From: Candidatus Falkowbacteria bacterium CG10_big_fil_rev_8_21_14_0_10_43_10 | GTDB taxonomy: Bacteria; Patescibacteriota; Patescibacteriia; Patescibacteriales; XYC2-FULL-47-12 | DNA length: 31,686 bases | Assembly (NCBI GenBank): GCA_002773655.1 | Contig: PFAR01000024.1 | Coordinates: 25,986 to 57,671, forward strand | Direction: 5' to 3' | Part shown: piece by piece, positions 21,404-31,442 of the stretch | Layout of the letters: every line of letters starts with the position of its first letter | Numbering within the stretch: the stretch's first letter is position 1 | The notes under the pieces: model-generated | Database searches by the model: none | What the model saw: only the letters and a program-made list of their open reading frames with translations | Told to the model about the DNA's origin: nothing | Position numbers and translations under genes: made by a program

Positions 21404-21450
21404 AAATAAAATATAGGGGCAGCGCAATGCGCTGCCCCTATATTTTATTT
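21404..21450. terminator. Bidirectional terminator, 22-bp perfect stem, GTAG-REP-like core
   Basis: AAATAAAATATAGGGGCAGCGC-AAT-GCGCTGCCCCTATATTTTATTT between convergent genes. Confidence 0.85.
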
Positions 21451-23706
21451 CAAATGTTTTATTTCTATTTCATAAATAGAGGCGCCGCTTAATATTATAA
21501 TTTTCTTTTCCTCTTCTATTACGGCGAAGTCGCGCCAGTCGCTTAATCCCTCAATTCGGTACTGCATAATAAATTTTCCATTTTTGTCAAATACCAATAA
21601 ACGCTTTCCCGCCGGCTCTAATATGTAAATATACCCATTTTCATTTTCGCCGGTCATTTTAAACTTAGCAGGAGCGGTTAAAGGCGGATTAACCGGAGCG
21701 AATTCAAATTCGTTGGAATAGCCGGAAAGCATCTTTAATATCCGGCCGTCATTCAACAGGGCGTATATATATCCGTCAATGGTAAAACTGACGGCATTTT
21801 TTATGTCCAGATCTTCTTTAATCCAGGCGTCCCGCGATTGGTAGTCGCGCGCGTAGCGGAAAATATTATTTCTGGCCGCTGACATTACATACAGCCGTCC
21901 GTTGTAAAAGGCAATGTCGGTTATTTCACCAGGGTTTTCGGTTATCGCGCTATTGATCTCGGAAATATTTAGGTCTTTGTCAACAATCAGCCCGCCCGAG
22001 GCGGAGATGAAAACAGCTTTACCGTCGCTTGATTTCGCGCCGTAGCTTATGTTTTTAGCATCCTTGTTTAATAGTCCGGCTGTATTATCGGCCAAGTTAA
22101 ATTGGTAAAGGGATTTATTGTCAGCGTCGGAGGCGATAATATCCCGGCCTAAGGGAATAATCAACCGGGGGTTGGCCGCCGAGTTAAGCTGGGAAAAATT
22201 AGCCAGTTCCTTGGGATTTTTTATATCAACCACATGGCTTATTTTATCCGTTTGCTCTCTGTTAACGGCGGTGAAATTATCAATTAAATTCTGGTCAATT
22301 TTTTTAAAGTTTTTAAGCTGATCAATAATCCCGCTGGTTTCAACGATAAGCTCCTGAGCCTTGACTTCATTATTATAAAGCAGGCTGGCTTCAATTTGAT
22401 TCTGTTTTTGCTTAACAAGCTGAATCAGCTCTTCATAGCTTTGCTGTTCGGCCTGCTGGGTTTTATTGCGGGTAACCTGGATAATGCCGTAAGCAAACAG
22501 GCCGGAGCAGACAACAAAAGTCATTAGCCAGACTTTGCTGATGGCGGAAAGATTAATAAACCAATGGAAACTTTTCAGCGCTGATGTTTTTACCGCCAGC
22601 CAGATATTTTTTACTGCCCGGAAAGATTTAAGAGATAACTCTTTCGGATGCGACAAAAGGCGGGTAAAGTAAATAATGATATTAAAGGCATAGGTAAAAA
22701 AATTTTTTCCATGGTAGCGCAAGCGTGTTAGGAAATTAAGGCGGTGTTTTTTAACCAGAAAGATTTTATCCCTGATGGCGGTAGTAATTTTTTTCTCCCG
22801 CGAGCCGGTTATTTTAGCGCCGATTTTTTTAAGGGCCGCCAGGTAGCGATTAGCGCTGATAATTCCCACCGGCGACAGGTATTTTTCCGTTTCATTTTCC
22901 GTTTCATTCATTAATTCCAGCGAGTTGCTGGCAGTTACATTTACCTGCATCCTGGGGATTGAACGTTTAACATGGGGAGTGGTGGAGTTTTTTATAATAA
23001 TGGCCAAAAAAGTCACATAGCTGTTGATTTTATGCAGCTGGCCTTTTAAATATTCAATAGCGCTTGTCGGCGGAAGGGTAGTGATAATTTTTGTTAAATG
23101 CCGGTTGTTGATATACTCCGGCAGTATTTCATTCGCGAACACGAGATATCCTTCGGACGGAATTTTCCCTTCGGTAATGTTGGAAAATATTTTATTAAGC
23201 TGGATTTTCGCCGGCCCTTCCTGGTCGTTAATAGCTGTGATTTTATATATTTTTTTGTCTTCCTCTTCTTCTGTTTTGTCATGATAAATCAGCATCGCCT
23301 TTATTTTTCCGGCCGAACTGAAGACCAGGTCGTTTTTATACACCACCCCCACTATAATGTTAAGCAGTTTAGGGTCTATTTTTACCTTTTCTTTTTTTAA
23401 AAAAGCTTCAAACTCCGCGTTGGTTTTGGCCAGCGCGGTTTCAAATATTTCTCCGATTCTGATTGTTCCCATTTTTTCCCGCAAGCTTATTTTTTCATTA
23501 TGGTAATAGTGAGCCGGCAGGGCGGAGATGAAAAAATTTATTATTTTCAAGGCGATCGGTTTTTTGTTTTCTATTTCGGCGATAAAAAACAATTTGCCCA
23601 GGAGAGCCTCTTGGTCGATTTGGGGATTGCTGATGAATATGTCGGCCGTGCTGGACGACTTCCCGGAAGCGGGAGACAGGATTAAACGCGATATTTTGTA
23701 ATACAT
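21445..23706 (-). CDS. Membrane protein: degenerate PP2C-like N-domain, TM, coiled segment, beta-propeller
   Basis: FSSAGKIKAML and YLVFANEIL echo the PP2C VGDSRAYL / LLLCSDGL motifs; TM near residue 390; propeller-like repeats (DIAFYNGRLYVM, FTIDGYIYAL, YIYILEP..KRLLVFDK). Confidence 0.7.
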   Translation of the reverse strand: MYYKISRLILSPASGKSSSTADIFISNPQIDQEALLGKLFFIAEIENKKPIALKIINFFISALPAHYYHNEKISLREKMGTIRIGEIFETALAKTNAEFEAFLKKEKVKIDPKLLNIIVGVVYKNDLVFSSAGKIKAMLIYHDKTEEEEDKKIYKITAINDQEGPAKIQLNKIFSNITEGKIPSEGYLVFANEILPEYINNRHLTKIITTLPPTSAIEYLKGQLHKINSYVTFLAIIIKNSTTPHVKRSIPRMQVNVTASNSLELMNETENETEKYLSPVGIISANRYLAALKKIGAKITGSREKKITTAIRDKIFLVKKHRLNFLTRLRYHGKNFFTYAFNIIIYFTRLLSHPKELSLKSFRAVKNIWLAVKTSALKSFHWFINLSAISKVWLMTFVVCSGLFAYGIIQVTRNKTQQAEQQSYEELIQLVKQKQNQIEASLLYNNEVKAQELIVETSGIIDQLKNFKKIDQNLIDNFTAVNREQTDKISHVVDIKNPKELANFSQLNSAANPRLIIPLGRDIIASDADNKSLYQFNLADNTAGLLNKDAKNISYGAKSSDGKAVFISASGGLIVDKDLNISEINSAITENPGEITDIAFYNGRLYVMSAARNNIFRYARDYQSRDAWIKEDLDIKNAVSFTIDGYIYALLNDGRILKMLSGYSNEFEFAPVNPPLTAPAKFKMTGENENGYIYILEPAGKRLLVFDKNGKFIMQYRIEGLSDWRDFAVIEEEKKIIILSGASIYEIEIKHLK

Positions 23707-24448: not shown

Positions 24449-24940
24449 ACTACAAATTACAAATTAAGTACAAATATACAAATAATTTTTTATGTTGCTT
24501 TATCAAAAGGAGGGTGTTGAGGTTATTTACCCAAGACTAAGCTATAAAATTGTTGGAATATTATTTGATGTATTTAATGAGTTGGGCTACGGTTATCAGG
24601 AAAAATTTTATGAGCGGGCGACAGAAAAATATTTAATAAAAAGAAATATAAATTATCAAAAACAAAAGGGGCATAAAGTTTATATAAATAGGGAATTTAT
24701 CGGTATATATTATTTAGACTTTTTGATAGATGATAAGATTATTTTAGAGCTGAAGAAAGGCAATTATTTTCCTAAGCAAAATATAGATCAAGTTAATGCT
24801 TATTTGCATGCCACCGGTTTAAAATTAGGGATACTGGCAAATTTTACCTCTACCGGAGTTAAATATAAACGTTTATTAAATATTAAATAGATTATAAAAT
24901 TGCAGATTTGTATATTTGTATACAATTTGTAATTTGTAGT
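24449..24940 (+). mobile_element. Putative mobile element: GxxExxY gene bounded by 35-bp inverted TACAAAT-array repeats
   Basis: Left arm 24449-83 and right arm 24906-40 are reverse complements at 32 of 35 positions. Confidence 0.7.
24492..24890 (+). CDS. GxxExxY protein (PD-(D/E)XK nuclease superfamily, PDDEXK_3-like)
   Basis: LSYKIVG, ELGYGYQEKFY (GxxExxY), LDFLIDDKIILELK (D...ExK), QVNAYL, GILANF. Confidence 0.92.
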   Translation: MLLYQKEGVEVIYPRLSYKIVGILFDVFNELGYGYQEKFYERATEKYLIKRNINYQKQKGHKVYINREFIGIYYLDFLIDDKIILELKKGNYFPKQNIDQVNAYLHATGLKLGILANFTSTGVKYKRLLNIK

Positions 24941-24949
24941 GATAATTAT

Positions 24950-25279
24950 ATGAAAAATCAACAAGAAGTTATCCAGCAAATCGCCGATCAAATAATCGCC
25001 GCCGCGGGAGCCGATAAGATGCCGGAGGGGGCGAAAGCGGCTTTCCGGGAAAATCTGGAGGCGCAGATTATGCGGCGACTGGGCTTGATTATTATCAAAA
25101 ATTTAGACGAGGAAGGCTTAAAAGCTTATGAAAAACTAACTGAAGCCGCTCCGGTTCCCTCCGTCGGCGAGATGCAGAGCTTTCTTGAGCAGTATCTTCC
25201 GGATTATGAGGAAAAAGTAAAAGCGGGTATGGATGAATTTATGGCGGAAATCGCCGGGCATCTTAATAAAAAGAGTTAA
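24950..25279 (+). CDS. Small acidic helical protein, DUF5663-like (start MKNQQ at 24950)
   Basis: G.DKMP..AK..F.E.LE.QI..RL..II..NL.EE...AYEKL...FLEQYLPDYEE pattern recalled for CPR DUF5663 proteins. Confidence 0.7.
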   Translation: MKNQQEVIQQIADQIIAAAGADKMPEGAKAAFRENLEAQIMRRLGLIIIKNLDEEGLKAYEKLTEAAPVPSVGEMQSFLEQYLPDYEEKVKAGMDEFMAEIAGHLNKKS

Positions 25280-25287
25280 GTTATTTT

Positions 25288-28200
25288 ATGTTAGAGCCAA
25301 AAATGCCACAATCACCTAGCCATGACGACGATGAAGGCAAACAGAAAGAAATAAAAGAGGCTGAAGAAGCTTTGGATCAAAATGAAATAGACCAAATTTT
25401 AAACCAGCAGCCTTTTGTGGAGCAAGACCAATGGCGGCCGTCGGCGGGAGATGTAAAAGATGCCGCTGCTGGCAATGAATCCAGCGAAAATTCGGTAGAG
25501 GGCGAGGAAGTCCCTGCTCCGGAAGATAAAGACGCTCCAGAGGAAGAAAAAAATGGAGGAAGCGAGACGGAATTTTCAAGGGAAGAAGATGAAGAAGCTA
25601 AGCAAATATTAAATAAAATAGCCTTGGAAGCGGGGATTTTTTATGTTAATAAAACCCCTATTACGCAAAAATGGATAGATGAAAAAATAGAAGAATTAGC
25701 AGAGTTGCCGGTTGATATAGATTTTTTTATAGAAGATTTAATAAATAATGAAATGAGCATTAATTATGATAAATATATTATAAAAGAAGGAGCGAAAGAA
25801 ACAGTTGATGAACACGCAGACGCTAAAAATTTAGAAGAAAAAATTTCCAGCGGAGAAACAGATGAAGAAACAGCGAAGGAAACCCCAACTGATGACGAAA
25901 ATAAAGATGAAGAGGAGACAGAGGAAAATAGAGAGAATGAAGATAAGGGAAAGGGAAAGAAAATGCGGCAAGACATTAACGACCTGCGCGCTATTTTAAA
26001 TACTGCGATTCTTGAGAGTAATAAAGACAAACTGGCGGAAAGTATTAAAGAAAGGACGGGAGAGATTGCTAAATTAGTGGAAGCGGAGAATATTGAAAAT
26101 AACGGAGAGTTAAAAAATTTGATTGAGGAATTATTAAAAGTTTTATCGGGAGAAGACGAAAAAAAGACAGATAATATAAATAAGAAAATTTCAGAGATAA
26201 CCGGATTATCGGCAGATGAGATTACGGAAATTTACCAAATTCAGGAAGAGGTAATCGCGAGAGAAGCGGAGGGCAAAGTAAATAAAGGGAAATTTTGGAA
26301 AGGGCTGGCGAGCACCGCCGGCTATATTGGCGCGGCCGGTTTAATCGGGTTTGCCAGCGGAGGCATGGGATTAATCGCGGCCGGAACGGCGAAAATAGGC
26401 TTTGCCGGCTTAGCCGGATTTAGGATTGCCGAGCGTTCATACCGGGGAAAAAAGCACGCCCAGAAGGTAGAGCAGGAGATTAATAATATAAAAAAATCAA
26501 TTCAAGAAAATGAAGCAAGAAAAAAAAGCCTGTTGGCGAATTTTTCCGGAGAAATGGCTACGAGAATCCAGGGAATGATAAATAAATTAGGCGAGAAAGA
26601 GGCGCCGGATGATACTGGTGATGAAAAAGAAACAAATGGCGCAAGATTTACCAGCGCTTACGAATATATTAATAGCAACTCAAACTTTGAGAAGTATAAC
26701 GAAGAAGAAAAAACATCTTTGTTGAGGGCGATAGACGCGTTAATTGCGGTTGATTATAGCAATAACAAAGTAGAAAAGGAAGTAGTGGAGAAAAATTCAA
26801 GCTGGTTTGGCCGGGCGCTGAAAAAGGTTGACGATTTTCTTACTAGCGACAAGACGTTCTTCAATCGGATGTTAAAGGGCGGAAATACCGCCGGGCAGGA
26901 GTTTAAAACCGCCTCTATTTTCGCGGCCGCTGGCATCGCGGCCCGGGAAGTCCCGGTAATCGGCGAGATTCTGCGCGGTTATGGCGGAATGAAGCTGGGC
27001 GAGATGGGAGCTTCTTTTTATAGCCGGAGAAAGGATGAAATTGTATCTGCCGAAGATATAAAAAAAATGCGGGAAGATCTTGCGGTACCAAAAGAAGAAG
27101 AAGACGACGAATTAACGGAATTAACAAAAGATTTTGACGCGGTAGAGAGCGCGGAACTTAATAGTTTAGTAAATAAAGCCAGGGCGCAGCTGCTTGACGC
27201 TAATTTTAGAAAGAATTTTCCTGATGAATATAATAAATTAAGGGTTGTTATTGATAAAATTGAGCAGGAAAAAATTATAGAGGCAGTTAATGAAACGAAA
27301 GCAAAAGAAGAATTTATAGAAGAGGACTGGACAGAAGAGAGTGAAATTTTTAAAGATATAAACAGTTATTTGCAAGAAAGAGACAGAGATGTACAAGCAG
27401 AGCTGGATAAGCGTTTAAGAAAAGAAAGAAATAAAACAGCCGCCGCGCATTTAGGGCGCGTTGCCGGTATGGCCGCGGGCGTTCTATCAGATGATTTGGT
27501 CCGGGGTTTGGCGGATATGCTGGAACATAAAGAAACAGCTGGCATCGGCGCAGCGGGACATGAATCTGTTTCAAATGGACAAGGATCTAACGCAGGAGAA
27601 CAATCGCTGGACGTTTCGCCTGACACTCCAGAATCGCCGCAGCCACCGGTTGAACCGCCTGCCCCGGATATTTTGCCTGAAAATAAAGGCGGTTTGGAAC
27701 ATCCGGAACACGAAGTCAGTAAAATCCACCGCGCGCTTTGGTATGACAATGATGATCCGAGCAAGCCGGTGGGAAATGAAAAGCGGTTTTTGCCCGGCGG
27801 AGTGCAACGGACTGGTTTTGATAAAGAAGGGGACATTATTTTTGATATAAGTAAAATGACTCCTGACGGTTCGGCGCACGGCGGGAATAATATTAATGTC
27901 CCTTATTTATTAAAACAAGACGGAAACGGGGACAGATTATGCGATAAATTGCGCCTGCTTATTACCGTGGATGGAGACAGGGACAGCGAGGTAATAGAGG
28001 TTCCGGTTGATACTGACGGAAAAATTACTATTCCCGCAGGTAGCGATCTGGCGGAAAAGCTTTTTGCCAAAGGGCCTAACGGGCAGGCGGTTTTTAAGGG
28101 CGCGTTTTTAGAGATTGCGAAAGTAAATGAGGGAAAAGACGGAGCGCGGAATGTTGAAATTATTGCCACGCATGTAGGAAATAAAACCATTAATGAAGAA

Positions 28201-30039
28201 ACTATAAAGAGCTTATTGCAGCCGAAAGTTGAAGAAGAAAGTACGCCCTCCTCCGCTGAAGCTACGGAGGGTGAAAAGTCTGCCCGTCCCGCTTCACAGA
28301 GCGAGGCCGGGGAAGTACGAATTAACGAAGATAGCGGTCAACAGGAGAAGGTTGCAAAGGGAGGCGGCGCGGCAGAAAGCAAGGTTGAAATCAGCGGAAA
28401 AAACGCGAGAGTTAACGGCGTGGAGTTTGAACCTAAAGATTTAGGCTTATTAAGGATTAATGAAAGCGTGCATATCAATAATGTATCCAGCCAGATTGCC
28501 GGCCAGTTTAAAAACGGAGAACAATTATTCCAAGTAGAAAATAACGGGCAGGTCAGCTACGCCCTGGGAACAGTTGATGATGGTGAATTTAAAGTAATTC
28601 AGCCCGATTTTATCGGCACGGGAAATGCGGAAGCTGTGCTGGACGCGGACAACAAAATTAATGTCGAATCGGGAACATGGGGCGCGAAAGTGGAGTCATA
28701 TGAAGCCGAATTGGATCAGATGAAGAGCTATTTGTCTGGCGCGGATGTAAAAGACCCGTTTCAATTTATGAAACAGGCGGGCTTTGATAATTATGATTTT
28801 GGCCGTTTGGAAACATTAATAAGAAACGGGATAACTAACCCGGCAGACGCGCATACTGCCTTGGAAATTGCCCAAAGCAGCGGAGCGAAGTTAAACCAGA
28901 TAGCGGAGCATTATTATATCGCCTCGCCGGTGGCGAAAAAATTGGGCGAAGATAATTCCGGCCTGATAAAAAATTTCATTGATTTTTTGCCCAAAGAAAA
29001 GAAGCATGAGATTGTAATAAATGAATTCTTTGCTAAAAATAATATAGATTACGCGGATAAAGTCGCCTGCAACGCGAGCAGCTCGGGAACAAAAATGGAA
29101 GTAGTTACCTATAATTTTCTGGATGACAGCGGAAAAACAAATGCTTTTGTGCGGATAATGCCGGATAAAATTGAGATATCAGGAGACGGAGACGTGGTGG
29201 ACGGCAATGACCATCCAATTGGTGATTTGGGGAAAATTTTAGCAGATCCGAGAGGATATTTGGAAAAGCATGAGGCTGGAATTTCTTTGGCTGAAAGCGC
29301 GGCGGCTCCGGAAACAAACTCTATCGGATTAAATTCGGGCGATATTTTAAGATACCCCGCCGCCGGGGGCCCGGTCATAAAAATAGGAGAGGCAGGCCCG
29401 GATGGAAAAATAAACTGTGTTTTTCAATTTGGCAGGAAGGAAATAAACACGGAATTAGTCCCCAAGGGAGAAAATATATATGAATATAAAGGCGAGGATG
29501 GCAGTATAGAGGCGTTAAAATTGGAGCCAGGCAAAAAATTCAGTTTTATTAACGATTATAAAGGGGCTGGCGGGCAGACAAACGAGTCTAAACAATTAGT
29601 GGATAATACGATAGCGGATATTAACAGCAATAATTTTAATAACCAGCTTACCGAAGCGCAGAAAAATCAGCTTGCCGCGGAATTGCCGGAAATGGGAAAA
29701 GAGATGTTCGGCGGCGTGATAGATAATAGTAGTTCGCGGCAGTCCGCTTTAATGCGTTTAATGATTAATCCGAATAATACCGACGCGCGCGAGGATTTAT
29801 TATATGAGCAAAGCGGCGATACCGTATTATCCCGCCTAGATGCTGTTAAGGATGTCGCGGTAAATAAAGAAAGCGGTCGGCGTCTGGTTGATATTGTTTA
29901 CCAGTTAAAGGGCGGGAAAGAAGAGCATCTTTATATCGGCGCGGGAAAAATCGGCAACAGCCTTAACAGCTTAGAAAATTACTCTATGGAAAATTTAGAT
30001 AAGTATTTAAAAGACATTCCGGCACGAATTAAACAATAA
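25288..30039 (+). CDS. Giant orphan protein (1583 aa): acidic N-terminus, Gly/Ala-rich hydrophobic hairpins, beta-rich C-terminal domains
   Basis: 4.75-kb uninterrupted ORF; no signal peptide or named domain recognised. Confidence 0.88.
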   Translation: MLEPKMPQSPSHDDDEGKQKEIKEAEEALDQNEIDQILNQQPFVEQDQWRPSAGDVKDAAAGNESSENSVEGEEVPAPEDKDAPEEEKNGGSETEFSREEDEEAKQILNKIALEAGIFYVNKTPITQKWIDEKIEELAELPVDIDFFIEDLINNEMSINYDKYIIKEGAKETVDEHADAKNLEEKISSGETDEETAKETPTDDENKDEEETEENRENEDKGKGKKMRQDINDLRAILNTAILESNKDKLAESIKERTGEIAKLVEAENIENNGELKNLIEELLKVLSGEDEKKTDNINKKISEITGLSADEITEIYQIQEEVIAREAEGKVNKGKFWKGLASTAGYIGAAGLIGFASGGMGLIAAGTAKIGFAGLAGFRIAERSYRGKKHAQKVEQEINNIKKSIQENEARKKSLLANFSGEMATRIQGMINKLGEKEAPDDTGDEKETNGARFTSAYEYINSNSNFEKYNEEEKTSLLRAIDALIAVDYSNNKVEKEVVEKNSSWFGRALKKVDDFLTSDKTFFNRMLKGGNTAGQEFKTASIFAAAGIAAREVPVIGEILRGYGGMKLGEMGASFYSRRKDEIVSAEDIKKMREDLAVPKEEEDDELTELTKDFDAVESAELNSLVNKARAQLLDANFRKNFPDEYNKLRVVIDKIEQEKIIEAVNETKAKEEFIEEDWTEESEIFKDINSYLQERDRDVQAELDKRLRKERNKTAAAHLGRVAGMAAGVLSDDLVRGLADMLEHKETAGIGAAGHESVSNGQGSNAGEQSLDVSPDTPESPQPPVEPPAPDILPENKGGLEHPEHEVSKIHRALWYDNDDPSKPVGNEKRFLPGGVQRTGFDKEGDIIFDISKMTPDGSAHGGNNINVPYLLKQDGNGDRLCDKLRLLITVDGDRDSEVIEVPVDTDGKITIPAGSDLAEKLFAKGPNGQAVFKGAFLEIAKVNEGKDGARNVEIIATHVGNKTINEETIKSLLQPKVEEESTPSSAEATEGEKSARPASQSEAGEVRINEDSGQQEKVAKGGGAAESKVEISGKNARVNGVEFEPKDLGLLRINESVHINNVSSQIAGQFKNGEQLFQVENNGQVSYALGTVDDGEFKVIQPDFIGTGNAEAVLDADNKINVESGTWGAKVESYEAELDQMKSYLSGADVKDPFQFMKQAGFDNYDFGRLETLIRNGITNPADAHTALEIAQSSGAKLNQIAEHYYIASPVAKKLGEDNSGLIKNFIDFLPKEKKHEIVINEFFAKNNIDYADKVACNASSSGTKMEVVTYNFLDDSGKTNAFVRIMPDKIEISGDGDVVDGNDHPIGDLGKILADPRGYLEKHEAGISLAESAAAPETNSIGLNSGDILRYPAAGGPVIKIGEAGPDGKINCVFQFGRKEINTELVPKGENIYEYKGEDGSIEALKLEPGKKFSFINDYKGAGGQTNESKQLVDNTIADINSNNFNNQLTEAQKNQLAAELPEMGKEMFGGVIDNSSSRQSALMRLMINPNNTDAREDLLYEQSGDTVLSRLDAVKDVAVNKESGRRLVDIVYQLKGGKEEHLYIGAGKIGNSLNSLENYSMENLDKYLKDIPARIKQ

Positions 30040-30313: not shown

Positions 30314-31390
30314 TTAAATCTTCGCGAGCTTTAACATCAGCTCGCTCGGCTTCAGAAACCGGATGAACACGTATCCGGCTCTCTGGTCCTCGGGGGAAAC
30401 TTCATCATACTTTAATCCCCCGATTCCGATTTGCGAGGCTTTTTGCCTCGCAGAGTCGCCGAGTTTCAAAACCCTGCCAATCGCCCAGGAGCGTTCATTG
30501 CTTAGTTCCTGGTTTCGGGAAGAAATCCCTGTATCGGCATCGGCGCCTGCCCAAATGGCGACGACTTCAACTTCGCCAGCCGCTCGCGCTTCGTTAATCA
30601 GCGCGATTTTTTTGGCCATTCCGATTTTTACAACCGACTGGCCAATGGCGAAATTTCCGACGTGGACTGTGTCCATGTTGTCGGCGCCGAAGCGGGCGAG
30701 CACCCGGGTTTCAACCAACATACGTGATAGCTTGTTGGTTGTTTCCCGGACTGCCGTTGTTTCACCGCGGATTCCGGCCAAAGTTTTTTCGAAGTCGTCC
30801 TGACGTTTTTTCACGTCAGCGACTGAATCCGAAAGAACCTTTTGGCCGTCGGTGAGATCGGTTACGCGGTCTTTCACATCCTCAACCGCGAGAAGTCGCT
30901 CGCCGACTTTGTCAATCCTGCCGTTCTGCGCCTCTATCGCCTCGGTCGCGGAGGCGATGTTGTCGGCGATTTTATCCAATTGTTTTTGAATCGCCGGCGG
31001 GATGGCGGTTTCCCGTTTTTGCAAAAAAATCCAACTGCCTATGAGAATCAGCGCACAAGCAGTTACAATTATTGCGTGATACCACCACGGGAAATGTTTT
31101 CGTGGAGTGGGGTTAGTTTCCTCTTCCTCTTCTTCGTCGTCGAGGTCGAGGTGGTCTAGTTCGTCTCCGGTTTCGGATTTTCCCTCATCGTCTAGGTCGA
31201 GGTTGGTTTCGGCGGATTCGTTTTCGCTGGGTTCGTCGCCGAGACCGTCGATATCCAGATCGTCGAGGTCGAGATCTTCGTCGACAGGTTCCGGTTCGGG
31301 GGTGGTATCGTCGACGACTTCCGGTTCGGATCGGTCAATATCCGGACCGTCGATATCCTGATCTTCTTGGTTGATCATCGTGTCTGCCAT
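30314..31390 (-). CDS. Bitopic membrane protein: acidic N-terminus, TM, coiled coil, divergent OmpA-like peptidoglycan-binding domain
   Basis: SD AAGGAG before ATG 31390; TM WWYHAIIVTACALILIGSWIFL; AGADADTGISSRNQELSNERS matches G..D..G....N..LS..R. Confidence 0.75.
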   Translation of the reverse strand: MADTMINQEDQDIDGPDIDRSEPEVVDDTTPEPEPVDEDLDLDDLDIDGLGDEPSENESAETNLDLDDEGKSETGDELDHLDLDDEEEEEETNPTPRKHFPWWYHAIIVTACALILIGSWIFLQKRETAIPPAIQKQLDKIADNIASATEAIEAQNGRIDKVGERLLAVEDVKDRVTDLTDGQKVLSDSVADVKKRQDDFEKTLAGIRGETTAVRETTNKLSRMLVETRVLARFGADNMDTVHVGNFAIGQSVVKIGMAKKIALINEARAAGEVEVVAIWAGADADTGISSRNQELSNERSWAIGRVLKLGDSARQKASQIGIGGLKYDEVSPEDQRAGYVFIRFLKPSELMLKLAKI

Positions 31391-31442
31391 AACAAATCTC
31401 CTTTTTTCCCGCATCTGTTTTCAGTGCGGGGAATTGGCCTTT

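Follow-up and report, generated by a model that had tools for sequence, protein, structure and literature searches.

Results

The window, i.e., the whole stretch of 31,686 nucleotides that we analysed from a Candidatus Falkowbacteria genome, contains a single ORF of 1583 aa (P0001; 25288-30039, + strand), here called the giant protein. The ORF is real, and a public collection contains the same protein as P0002, with 1578 aa and Met6 as the start. A small gene on the same strand (24908-25279) ends 8 nt upstream of this ORF. Its product, a small acidic helical protein, matches the DUF5663 family (Pfam PF18908) with 29.1 bits against a cut-off of 23.7, and a genome-wide search found no other DUF5663 copy. 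The likely start of this gene is the ATG at 24950, giving a protein of 109 aa with a pI of 4.8. The two genes follow rplJ-rplL in this genome as well as in the distant genome G232, and the giant gene is present in one copy per genome among housekeeping genes. In a survey of the loci by eye, the downstream genes varied, none recurred, and no immunity-like neighbor was noticed.

The N-terminal region of the giant protein (aa 1-224; 25288-25959, + strand) is acidic and of low complexity by composition, and it lacks a signal peptide, in line with the earlier description. D and E together make up 27 to 31 of every 100 aa across the first 300 aa. The acidity of the supposed 330-aa N-terminus stands while its low complexity does not extend beyond approximately aa 224: residues 225-334 (25960-26289, + strand) form a conserved helical domain with the motifs LLNxAKL and ETGL, supported by the alignment and by AF2 (pLDDT 83-95). 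Conservation of residues 1-224 is poor, and different modules take their place in orthologues; in the orthologue P0005, an FtsK_gamma domain (aa 724-775) lies N-terminal to the hairpin of that protein. A helical stalk with the motif ATRIQxMID (aa 385-514; 26440-26829, + strand) is conserved in the alignment and modeled at pLDDT ~87-94. Further along are a Pro-rich linker (aa ~760-805; 27565-27702, + strand; pLDDT <50), which had been recognized earlier, and a C-terminal region that mixes beta and helical segments (aa 1030-1583; 28375-30036, + strand). The latter has no Pfam, NCBIfam, PHROG or PDB match and no recognized enzyme domain. Its last ~120 aa are common to some relatives: the match in G006 spans aa 1461-1577, and the C-termini of P0007 and P0016 are similar.

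The initial annotation described three hydrophobic Gly/Ala-rich hairpins, and the first of these is indeed present at aa 338-381 (26299-26430, + strand). Hairpin 1 is the strongest hydrophobic stretch in the giant protein (Kyte-Doolittle 1.66) and forms the tip of a long helical hairpin with the turn SGGMGL; a stretch of 40 residues contains a single charged residue (Lys), which is unusual for a soluble protein. In the AF2 model, confident helical domains (pLDDT ~90) lie on either side of hairpin 1, while the hairpin itself is helical and not packed against them (pLDDT 29-39). Its position is kept across relatives while its length in the alignment varies from ~30 to 44 aa, and in Uhrbacteria-like relatives the arms are ~10 residues long, which does not suffice to cross a bilayer. 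On a crude hydrophobicity scale, applied without position weighting, on which a lower score means more hydrophobic, the best 19-mer of hairpin 1 scores +2.5 and each arm alone +4.4, and membrane anchors encoded by neighboring genes score -0.6 and -1.5. Hairpin 1 thus has a marginal hydrophobicity, too low for an ordinary membrane anchor. On the same scale, helix 1 of the ATP synthase c subunit, a true Gly/Ala-rich membrane helix, scores +2.0, and hairpin 1 could, therefore, be a real transmembrane hairpin.

The two further hairpins are conserved segments that hold conserved Arg, Glu, Pro and Lys residues and score from +8 to +13 on this scale, far from membrane-spanning segments. Hairpin 2 (aa 535-582; 26890-27033, + strand; pLDDT 40-57), with the pattern AGxxAREVP...YxGMKxGE and an invariant Gly549, is the most conserved motif of the helical hairpin module; it includes a second hydrophobicity peak at aa 540-563 and scores +8.3 and +12.6. 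The A/G-rich third segment (aa 722-745; 27451-27522, + strand) is a weak stretch that scores +9.8 and is modeled as the end of a single long helix (aa 688-747), where pLDDT drops below 50. Both of these segments are too polar to cross a membrane. This weak hydrophobicity is a family trait: none of 150 proteins of the WYDN family defined below has any 19-mer scoring below +1.0, compared to 193 of the 658 ORFs of at least 150 aa in this genome, and 112 of the 150 have none below +3.

The beta-rich part that had been noted after the Pro-rich linker includes a domain of ~155 aa (aa 808-966; 27709-28185, + strand), which AF2 models as a beta-sandwich with a pLDDT of 89 and a pTM of 0.84. We refer to it as WYDN. 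It is a new domain and the widely shared hallmark of a wider family, defined here by the pattern W-Y/M-D-N...N-E...G-G...M...G-S...E...A-T inside a protein of at least 1000 aa; the giant protein has both features. Close and distant groups of this family were linked by hhalign at 99.8%, for the WYDN domain only. A profile search detected WYDN in 15 of 401 genomes, with one match in each positive genome (15/15), and every match lay in an ORF of 880 to 1625 aa. The best fold matches of the domain, all weak, are to Ig/FN3-like domains of adhesins and receptors.

Contrary to the initial annotation, the giant protein is not an orphan. Syntenic orthologues of 1720 to 2141 aa, which also contain Pro/Thr-rich linkers, are encoded in three related genomes of the same bacterial family, and an exhaustive homologue search, a survey that the initial annotation had proposed, returned 375 cluster representatives at E≤1e-3. 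As far as seen, this family without previous description is restricted to the CPR/Patescibacteria. The helical hairpin module (aa 225-750) defines a second, narrower family than WYDN. Distant relatives carry C-terminal GT2, GT9, Pkinase, Peptidase_C2 (calpain), YkuD (an L,D-transpeptidase domain, in one relative) or DUF362 domains, some of them two enzymes in tandem (GT2 plus kinase or GT2 plus calpain). At the family level, lineage-variable enzyme domains are, thus, placed on a conserved N-terminal part, while the giant protein itself has none. The giant protein evolves much faster than its neighbors, with 33-35% identity compared to 57-68% in the same genome pairs.

A homologous small gene adjoins the giant gene at three orthologous loci and at eight distant loci encoding WYDN proteins, and a small DUF5663-type gene does so at 6 of 6 testable loci encoding the hairpin module. 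Altogether, a DUF5663-like gene is adjacent at about 18 of the 20 loci examined, including loci for hairpin-module giants without WYDN, and the partner proteins are acidic (pI 4.1-4.9). Because both kinds of giant gene are almost always beside a DUF5663 gene, the two form a conserved two-gene module, which occurs in genomes of Paceibacteria, Saccharibacteria, Microgenomates, Gracilibacteria and ABY1 type.

The initial annotation had likened the giant protein to pore-forming toxins and translocators, and the fold comparison that it suggested gave no known pore-former or translocator among the matches listed. For a model of aa 225-800 (mean pLDDT 68), the best Foldseek hit had an E-value of 0.9 and the best VIA hits, with a Z-score of up to 7.5, were to generic three-helix bundles; ClyA/HlyE, Hbl/Nhe and colicins were not among the matches listed by either program. 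At E≤0.1, neither Pfam nor NCBIfam placed the whole protein in a family, ClyA/HlyE and Hbl/Nhe included, and Pfam gave no colicin hit; a PDB sequence search gave no match at E≤1.

Discussion

Here, we identify a family of giant CPR proteins with weakly hydrophobic hairpins, a shared domain layout and a paired DUF5663 gene. From these observations we infer contact with a membrane, the choice of that membrane and a role for DUF5663. With a probability of roughly 0.4, we favor a model whereby the giant protein is made in the cytoplasm and attached to the inner face of the producer's own membrane by its hairpin tip. The absence of a signal peptide and of any segment hydrophobic enough for Sec/SRP insertion suggests that it would be synthesised as a soluble cytoplasmic protein, and it would probably meet the membrane only post-translationally. 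The Gly/Ala-rich tip of aa 338-381 may then enter the bilayer from one face, wedge-like and without spanning it, and this face is most likely the inner one of the producer's own membrane. The protein would, in this way, act as a scaffold that keeps the WYDN beta-sandwich and lineage-specific C-terminal modules at the membrane; in relatives, these modules are enzymes that depend on nucleotides (e.g., GT2, GT9 and kinases). DUF5663 would bind the helical hairpin part as its partner or hold it.

Several lines of evidence support this membrane scaffold. First, hairpin 1 is the sole near-hydrophobic stretch, its arms are variable and in places short, and its tip is unpacked in the AF2 model; the survey of 150 family members likewise found no strongly hydrophobic segment. 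Second, the gene is single copy, in housekeeping surroundings and almost always paired with DUF5663. Third, the GT2, GT9, kinase and calpain domains of relatives need cytoplasmic co-substrates, and the FtsK_gamma winged helix in the syntenic orthologue P0005 is of a cytoplasmic type. Counted against the scaffold is the closeness of the hairpin 1 score to that of ATP synthase c helix 1. Moreover, Pro/Thr-rich linkers and beta-sandwich domains are commoner in exported proteins, YkuD acts outside the cytoplasm, and fast evolution is typical of surface or host-contact proteins. In reticulon-, caveolin- and flotillin-type wedges and in the paddle of bacterial dynamin-like proteins, the short hairpin arms need not cross the bilayer, and everything else in the protein stays on a single side of it, as suggested for the giant protein; however, the giant protein has no homology to these monotopic wedges and no GTPase or SPFH domain, and the likeness is one of arm length and hydrophobicity alone.

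The same observations are accounted for by insertion into the producer's membrane from the cytoplasm and by an updated form of the idea in the initial annotation, which we consider less likely, namely that the giant protein is exported and inserts into a host membrane. In this view, DUF5663 would serve as a chaperone shielding the hairpin, and the giant protein would be passed to a secretion machine, e.g., the relaxase-less type IV secretion system (T4SS) of CPR bacteria; once inserted in the host membrane, the hairpin would anchor the C-terminal modules or deliver them. Type III and IV substrates typically have transmembrane segments whose hydrophobicity lies just under that which targets proteins to the inner membrane, and these segments are bound by chaperones (Krampen et al. 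2018, PMC6110835). The uniformly moderate hydrophobicity across the family matches this pattern, hairpin 1 has marginal hydrophobicity and lies at the tip of a long helical hairpin with flanking helices, and the small acidic partner is conserved. The swapping of C-terminal enzyme domains among lineages and the fast evolution of the gene also fit export, as does a VirB4/TraG-like ATPase encoded in this genome; in a cultured Saccharibacterium, the T4SS is essential, and none of its substrates is known (PMC10633639; 10.1101/2025.01.22.634366). However, 386 of the 401 sampled genomes encode a VirB4-like ATPase, compared to 15 with WYDN, and because this ATPase is near-universal in the phylum, its co-occurrence with WYDN is uninformative. 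The missing secretion signal, the single housekeeping-context copy without a noticed immunity-like neighbor, the absence of pore-formers and translocators from the sequence hits and the listed fold matches, the C-terminus devoid of an enzyme domain and the cytoplasmic role suggested by FtsK_gamma in an orthologue all argue against export. It is rather unlikely that DUF5663 and the giant proteins are chaperone-substrate pairs of the relaxase-less CPR T4SS, with the hairpin entering the membrane of a host bacterium and the C-terminal enzymes acting on or in the host. If true, they would be the first effector family of episymbiotic bacteria.

Type III and IV substrates and translocators with transmembrane domains (IpaB/YopB-type proteins, chlamydial Inc proteins and Legionella TMD-effectors) resemble the giant protein in having a hairpin flanked by long helices, a hydrophobicity under that of ordinary inner-membrane anchors, no Sec signal and an adjacent gene for a small acidic partner; on our crude scale, the giant protein has the moderate hydrophobicity of secreted TMD effectors. 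By contrast, no sequence or fold similarity to them was found, the giant protein is three to four times larger, and its gene occurs once, among housekeeping genes, and is paired with DUF5663, which is no known chaperone class. Alpha pore-forming toxins (ClyA/HlyE and Hbl/Nhe) and colicin pore domains are likewise helical, carry a hydrophobic hairpin and are soluble before meeting a membrane. However, the hairpin of the giant protein, which is modeled at low confidence, does not look buried in a bundle, and WYDN and the C-terminus have no counterpart in these toxins.

Two further readings are improbable. The Gly/Ala-rich helices might have no relation to membranes and instead form glycine-zipper-type contacts in or between subunits of a soluble cytoplasmic assembly. 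The moderate hydrophobicity, with 112 of 150 members lacking a 19-mer below +3, and the conserved charged residues of hairpin 2, which fit a protein-protein motif, point in this direction, while the unpacked hairpin 1 and its 40 residues with a single Lys at the tip of a helical hairpin do not. About as improbable is a bitopic surface protein with a cytoplasmic N-terminus, in which the third A/G-rich segment would be a signal-anchor and WYDN and the C-terminus would be displayed as an adhesin. A positive cluster before this segment and acidic residues after it, with a similar layout in distant relatives, are consistent with such a topology, as are the beta-sandwich behind a Pro-rich linker, an arrangement of stalk and domain typical of surface proteins, the weak fold matches to adhesin and receptor domains and the YkuD domain of one relative. 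However, the putative anchor holds Lys, His and Arg and scores +9.8, no family member has a strongly hydrophobic segment, and the GT2, GT9 and kinase domains would be outside without their co-substrates. MARTX and Rhs/CDI type toxins share with the family a conserved N-terminal part and swappable C-terminal enzymes; however, polymorphic toxin systems are marked by several copies or cassettes and a downstream immunity gene, while all 15 positive genomes have a single match and the giant protein has no repeats, no autoprocessing domain and, in the survey by eye, no evident immunity gene.

To our knowledge, how CPR/Patescibacteria attach to and exploit their hosts is largely unknown. What had been taken for an orphan is, by our findings, part of a defined two-gene module that can be tested and that is composed of a new beta-sandwich domain, a moderately hydrophobic hairpin module and a dedicated small partner. 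Should the module turn out to be a membrane scaffold of the cytoplasm, it would still represent a component of cell biology that is specific to the lineage and bears glycosyltransferases and kinases. The locus is a good experimental lead: the Saccharibacteria are, as far as we know, the only CPR group with cultured, genetically tractable strains, and because some members of the family are found in them, location and function are directly testable.

Results

The window contains one long ORF (25288-30039, + strand), which encodes a protein of 1583 aa, here referred to as the giant; P0002 in the public collection is the same protein with a start five codons later. Composition bears out the outline given in the initial annotation, i.e., an acidic N-terminus (within the first 300 aa, 27 to 31 of every 100 residues are acidic), no signal peptide, a Gly/Ala-rich stretch, and a Pro-rich linker. 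The Gly/Ala-rich hydrophobic hairpin 1 (aa 338-381; nt 26299-26430, + strand) has the top Kyte-Doolittle peak (1.66); the second peak in this profile (aa 540-563) lies in hairpin 2 (aa 535-582), and the weak A/G-rich third segment (aa 722-745) precedes the Pro-rich linker, after which the sequence is non-helical. The giant has no match in Pfam, NCBIfam, or PHROGs, neither the giant itself nor the A3 and A4 profiles had a significant match among PDB sequences, and ESM Atlas queries with the full sequence and with aa 225-760 gave no usable match. Likewise, no enzyme domain is recognizable in the giant, including its C-terminal 550 aa, by Pfam, NCBIfam, PHROGs, or PDB searches. As judged from its sequence, the giant belongs to no described family, and we found nothing relevant in the literature on giant Patescibacteria proteins. 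A phage tape-measure or ejection protein was ruled out by the lack of a PHROG match, the chromosomal housekeeping context, and the conserved synteny.

The giant had been described as an orphan. This description does not hold: The same bacterial family contains syntenic full-length relatives, and when 1.84 billion representatives were searched exhaustively with HMMER and aa 330-1529 as the query, 375 proteins matched at E ≤ 1e-3 (218 at E ≤ 1e-10), nearly all of 1000 to 2100 aa. The same-family relatives, identified by searching 60 related genomes in all six frames, share 54% (G008, over aa 191-1074), 33% (G005), and 29 to 35% (G010) identity with the giant. Their ORFs of 1720 to 2141 aa have the gene order of the window, i.e., a gene on the opposite strand for a protein of 753 to 759 aa, then a 193-aa HTH gene, the small DUF5663 gene, and the giant. 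Neighboring genes are 57 to 68% identical between these genomes versus 33 to 35% for the giant, which, therefore, evolves much faster than its neighbors. A PD-(D/E)XK (PDDEXK_3) nuclease cassette (24492-24890), located in the window between the HTH and DUF5663 genes, is absent from the orthologous loci, which fits an inserted mobile cassette. Two of the orthologous loci, L010 and L011, instead have a short basic ORF of 65 to 94 aa at this position.

The segment common to almost all family matches is aa ∼808-966, hereafter called the WYDN domain for the first of its motifs. AlphaFold2 confidently predicts a beta-sandwich (pLDDT 89, pTM 0.84; alignment of 48 sequences). This model has no specific structural relative in Foldseek (best E 0.03, generic Ig/FN3-like sandwiches) or VIA (best Z 4.8, cytokine-receptor-type FN3 domains), both at noise level. 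The WYDN profile matched 15 of 401 genomes across the phylum, once per genome and always in ORFs of 880 to 1625 aa; the genome surveys are samples, and absence from a sample does not equal true absence. Named metagenome-assembled genomes with the domain include Paceibacterota, Saccharibacteria, and Doudna-, Kaiser-, Microgenomates-, and Gracilibacteria-type genomes, and some of the NCBI labels look unreliable. Several contigs with WYDN genes (L068, L075, L086, L100, and L101) are labeled "uncultured Gammaproteobacteria" or "Bdellovibrionota"; the genome tool assigns L068, the G355 contig, to the class of the window, and at least this label is, therefore, wrong.

Pfam scans of 65 family members identified enzyme domains that are always C-terminal to the WYDN domain. 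These are a GT2-type glycosyltransferase (at least 5 members and the consensus of most of the distant members), GT9 (6 members), a protein kinase (5 members), and, in one member each, a calpain-type protease, a YkuD L,D-transpeptidase, and DUF362. Some members combine two enzymes (e.g., GT2 with kinase or GT2 with calpain), and DHH and metallophosphoesterase motifs were recognized by eye in some. In the syntenic orthologue P0005, Pfam detected an FtsK_gamma winged helix (aa 724-775) on the N-terminal side of the hairpin. In distant relatives (e.g., P0003, P0013, and P0020), a short conserved Pro-rich motif, roughly PPxIPxxxRxPLE, directly follows the WYDN domain and separates it from the variable C-terminal enzymes. 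This motif, which could be a processing or docking site, is absent from the window's giant.

The hairpin module (aa ∼225-750) has a narrower distribution than the WYDN domain. It is present in the syntenic orthologues, P0006 to P0011, P0016, and Uhrbacteria-like proteins such as P0059, P0112, and P0155 to P0157, and 10 of the 301 genomes surveyed in the class encode it. The six further hairpin-module proteins examined lack the WYDN domain. In profile-profile comparisons of the close and distant WYDN groups, hhalign supported the WYDN domain alone as homologous (99.8%), and a single homologous N-terminal module in both groups was rejected. Thus, the helical N-terminal part of the distant group, which has its own A/G-rich hairpin, differs while being similarly built. 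By sequence comparison, then, the giant is a meeting point of two families.

The gene directly upstream (24908-25279, + strand) encodes a DUF5663 protein (PF18908, Pfam), is the sole copy in the genome, and has its stop codon 8 nt before the ATG of the giant. Small acidic DUF5663-like genes (pI 4.1 to 4.9 for the giant-linked ones) adjoin the giant in all three orthologous loci, in eight of nine distant WYDN loci, mostly directly upstream, and in all six testable loci in which the giant has the hairpin module but lacks a WYDN domain; further DUF5663-centered loci likewise have a giant adjacent. The pair follows rplJ-rplL in the window and in the distant genome G232. Because the Pfam family is broader (79 of 401 genomes) and its top-scoring members are another subfamily located between infB and fmt/def, the giant-linked subfamily is one branch of DUF5663. 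In 12 loci from other CPR genomes (L038 to L049), proteins of the top-scoring subfamily start with MFKLDD, and most of their genes adjoin infB and fmt/def rather than a giant; in G070 and G169, copies of the MFKLDD type lie a few genes from a giant. We found no paper mentioning DUF5663. The WYDN domain, the hairpin module, and the pairing with this DUF5663 branch are new relative to the libraries and papers searched. Together, the giant and its DUF5663 partner form a well-defined, phylum-specific module that is testable in cultured Saccharibacteria.

Hydrophobicity was calculated as 19-residue window sums on the biological scale of Hessa and colleagues, on which lower values are more hydrophobic; the scale was applied in a crude form with no weighting by position. 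True anchors in the neighboring OmpA-like and MltG-like genes scored −0.6 and −1.5, respectively. The best window of the giant, straddling the turn of hairpin 1, scored +2.5, the single arms of hairpin 1 +4.4 each, those of hairpin 2 +8.3 and +12.6, and the third segment +9.8. All of 150 WYDN-family proteins lack a window below +1.0, and in 112 of them no window scores below +3; by this measure, 193 of the 658 ORFs of ≥150 aa in the window's genome have a window below +1.0. Because helix 1 of the ATP synthase c subunit, a real Gly/Ala-rich membrane helix, scores +2.0, hairpin 1 could still be membrane embedded. In alignments, hairpin 1 is conserved in position, with a length of about 30 to 44 aa and arms of only ∼10 residues in the Uhrbacteria-like group. 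Hairpin 2, the most conserved motif of the module, retains Arg, Glu, Pro, and Lys and looks like a functional motif rather than a membrane span.

When aa 225-800 were modeled with AlphaFold2 (18 sequences, mean pLDDT 68), aa 225-334 and 385-514 formed confident helical domains (pLDDT about 90). Hairpin 1 lies at the tip of a long helical hairpin that turns at SGGMGL (pLDDT 29 to 39), and hairpin 2 and the third segment are modeled at low confidence. Fold searches returned generic helical bundles only (Foldseek best E 0.9, VIA best Z 7.5). The initial annotation had proposed pore-former-like hairpins; no known pore-former matched the giant in sequence in any test, and the fold matches listed for this model did not include ClyA/Hbl, colicins, or translocators.

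Discussion

Within the limits of the crude hydrophobicity scale, an ordinary Sec-inserted anchor is ruled out. Our data fit a model in which the giant would be synthesized in the cytoplasm without ordinary Sec insertion, and in which the tip of the hairpin would mediate contact with a membrane after translation. By analogy, the giant would work most like Sec-avoiding, hairpin-bearing proteins targeted to membranes, such as type III/IV membrane substrates and translocators, or like monotopic hairpin scaffolds.

We favor, with a probability of roughly 40%, a scaffold on the cytoplasmic face of the cell's own membrane. The cytoplasmic-type enzymes in relatives and the FtsK_gamma domain in an orthologue, the single copy per genome, the housekeeping neighborhood with the pair after rplJ-rplL, and the lack of an export signal all argue for this location. 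An exported, host-directed protein, in line with the effector function suggested initially, is a less probable though serious competitor. The uniformly moderate hydrophobicity resembles that of type III/IV membrane substrates, the segments of which are bound by chaperones (Krampen et al., PMC6110835). Export would also be consistent with the conserved acidic partner gene, the swappable C-terminal enzymes and fast evolution of the gene, the Pro/Thr-rich linkers in orthologues, and the YkuD domain in one member. Moreover, no substrate is known for the T4SS, which is essential for a cultured Saccharibacterium, and contig C46 of the window's genome encodes a 641-aa VirB4/TraG-like ATPase (P-loop_TraG, AAA_10, and DUF87; L034, 685-2610), which by its domains shows that at least the T4SS motor is present. 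However, this ATPase family occurs in 386 of 401 sampled genomes of the phylum, a tally that includes the unpublished genome G214, on which no other claim rests; co-occurrence with the T4SS ATPase is, therefore, uninformative.

Compared to the cytoplasmic-face scaffold, a soluble assembly with no role at the membrane is improbable. A bitopic surface protein is marginally more so. It would have a polar segment as its signal-anchor and would leave nucleotide-dependent enzymes stranded outside the cell, both of which make it unlikely. The small remainder falls to something else.

Two further genes accompany the giant. The 753-aa protein of the window (21445-23706, − strand) has counterparts with 57 to 59% identity at the same position in G005 and G010, and only weak Pfam and PHROG matches. 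Convergent to the giant lies a gene (30314-31414, − strand) for a protein with an acidic tail, a transmembrane segment, a coiled coil, and an OmpA-like domain; a 31% identical homologue (L013, 8628-9719) is likewise convergent to the 2336-aa giant of G006.
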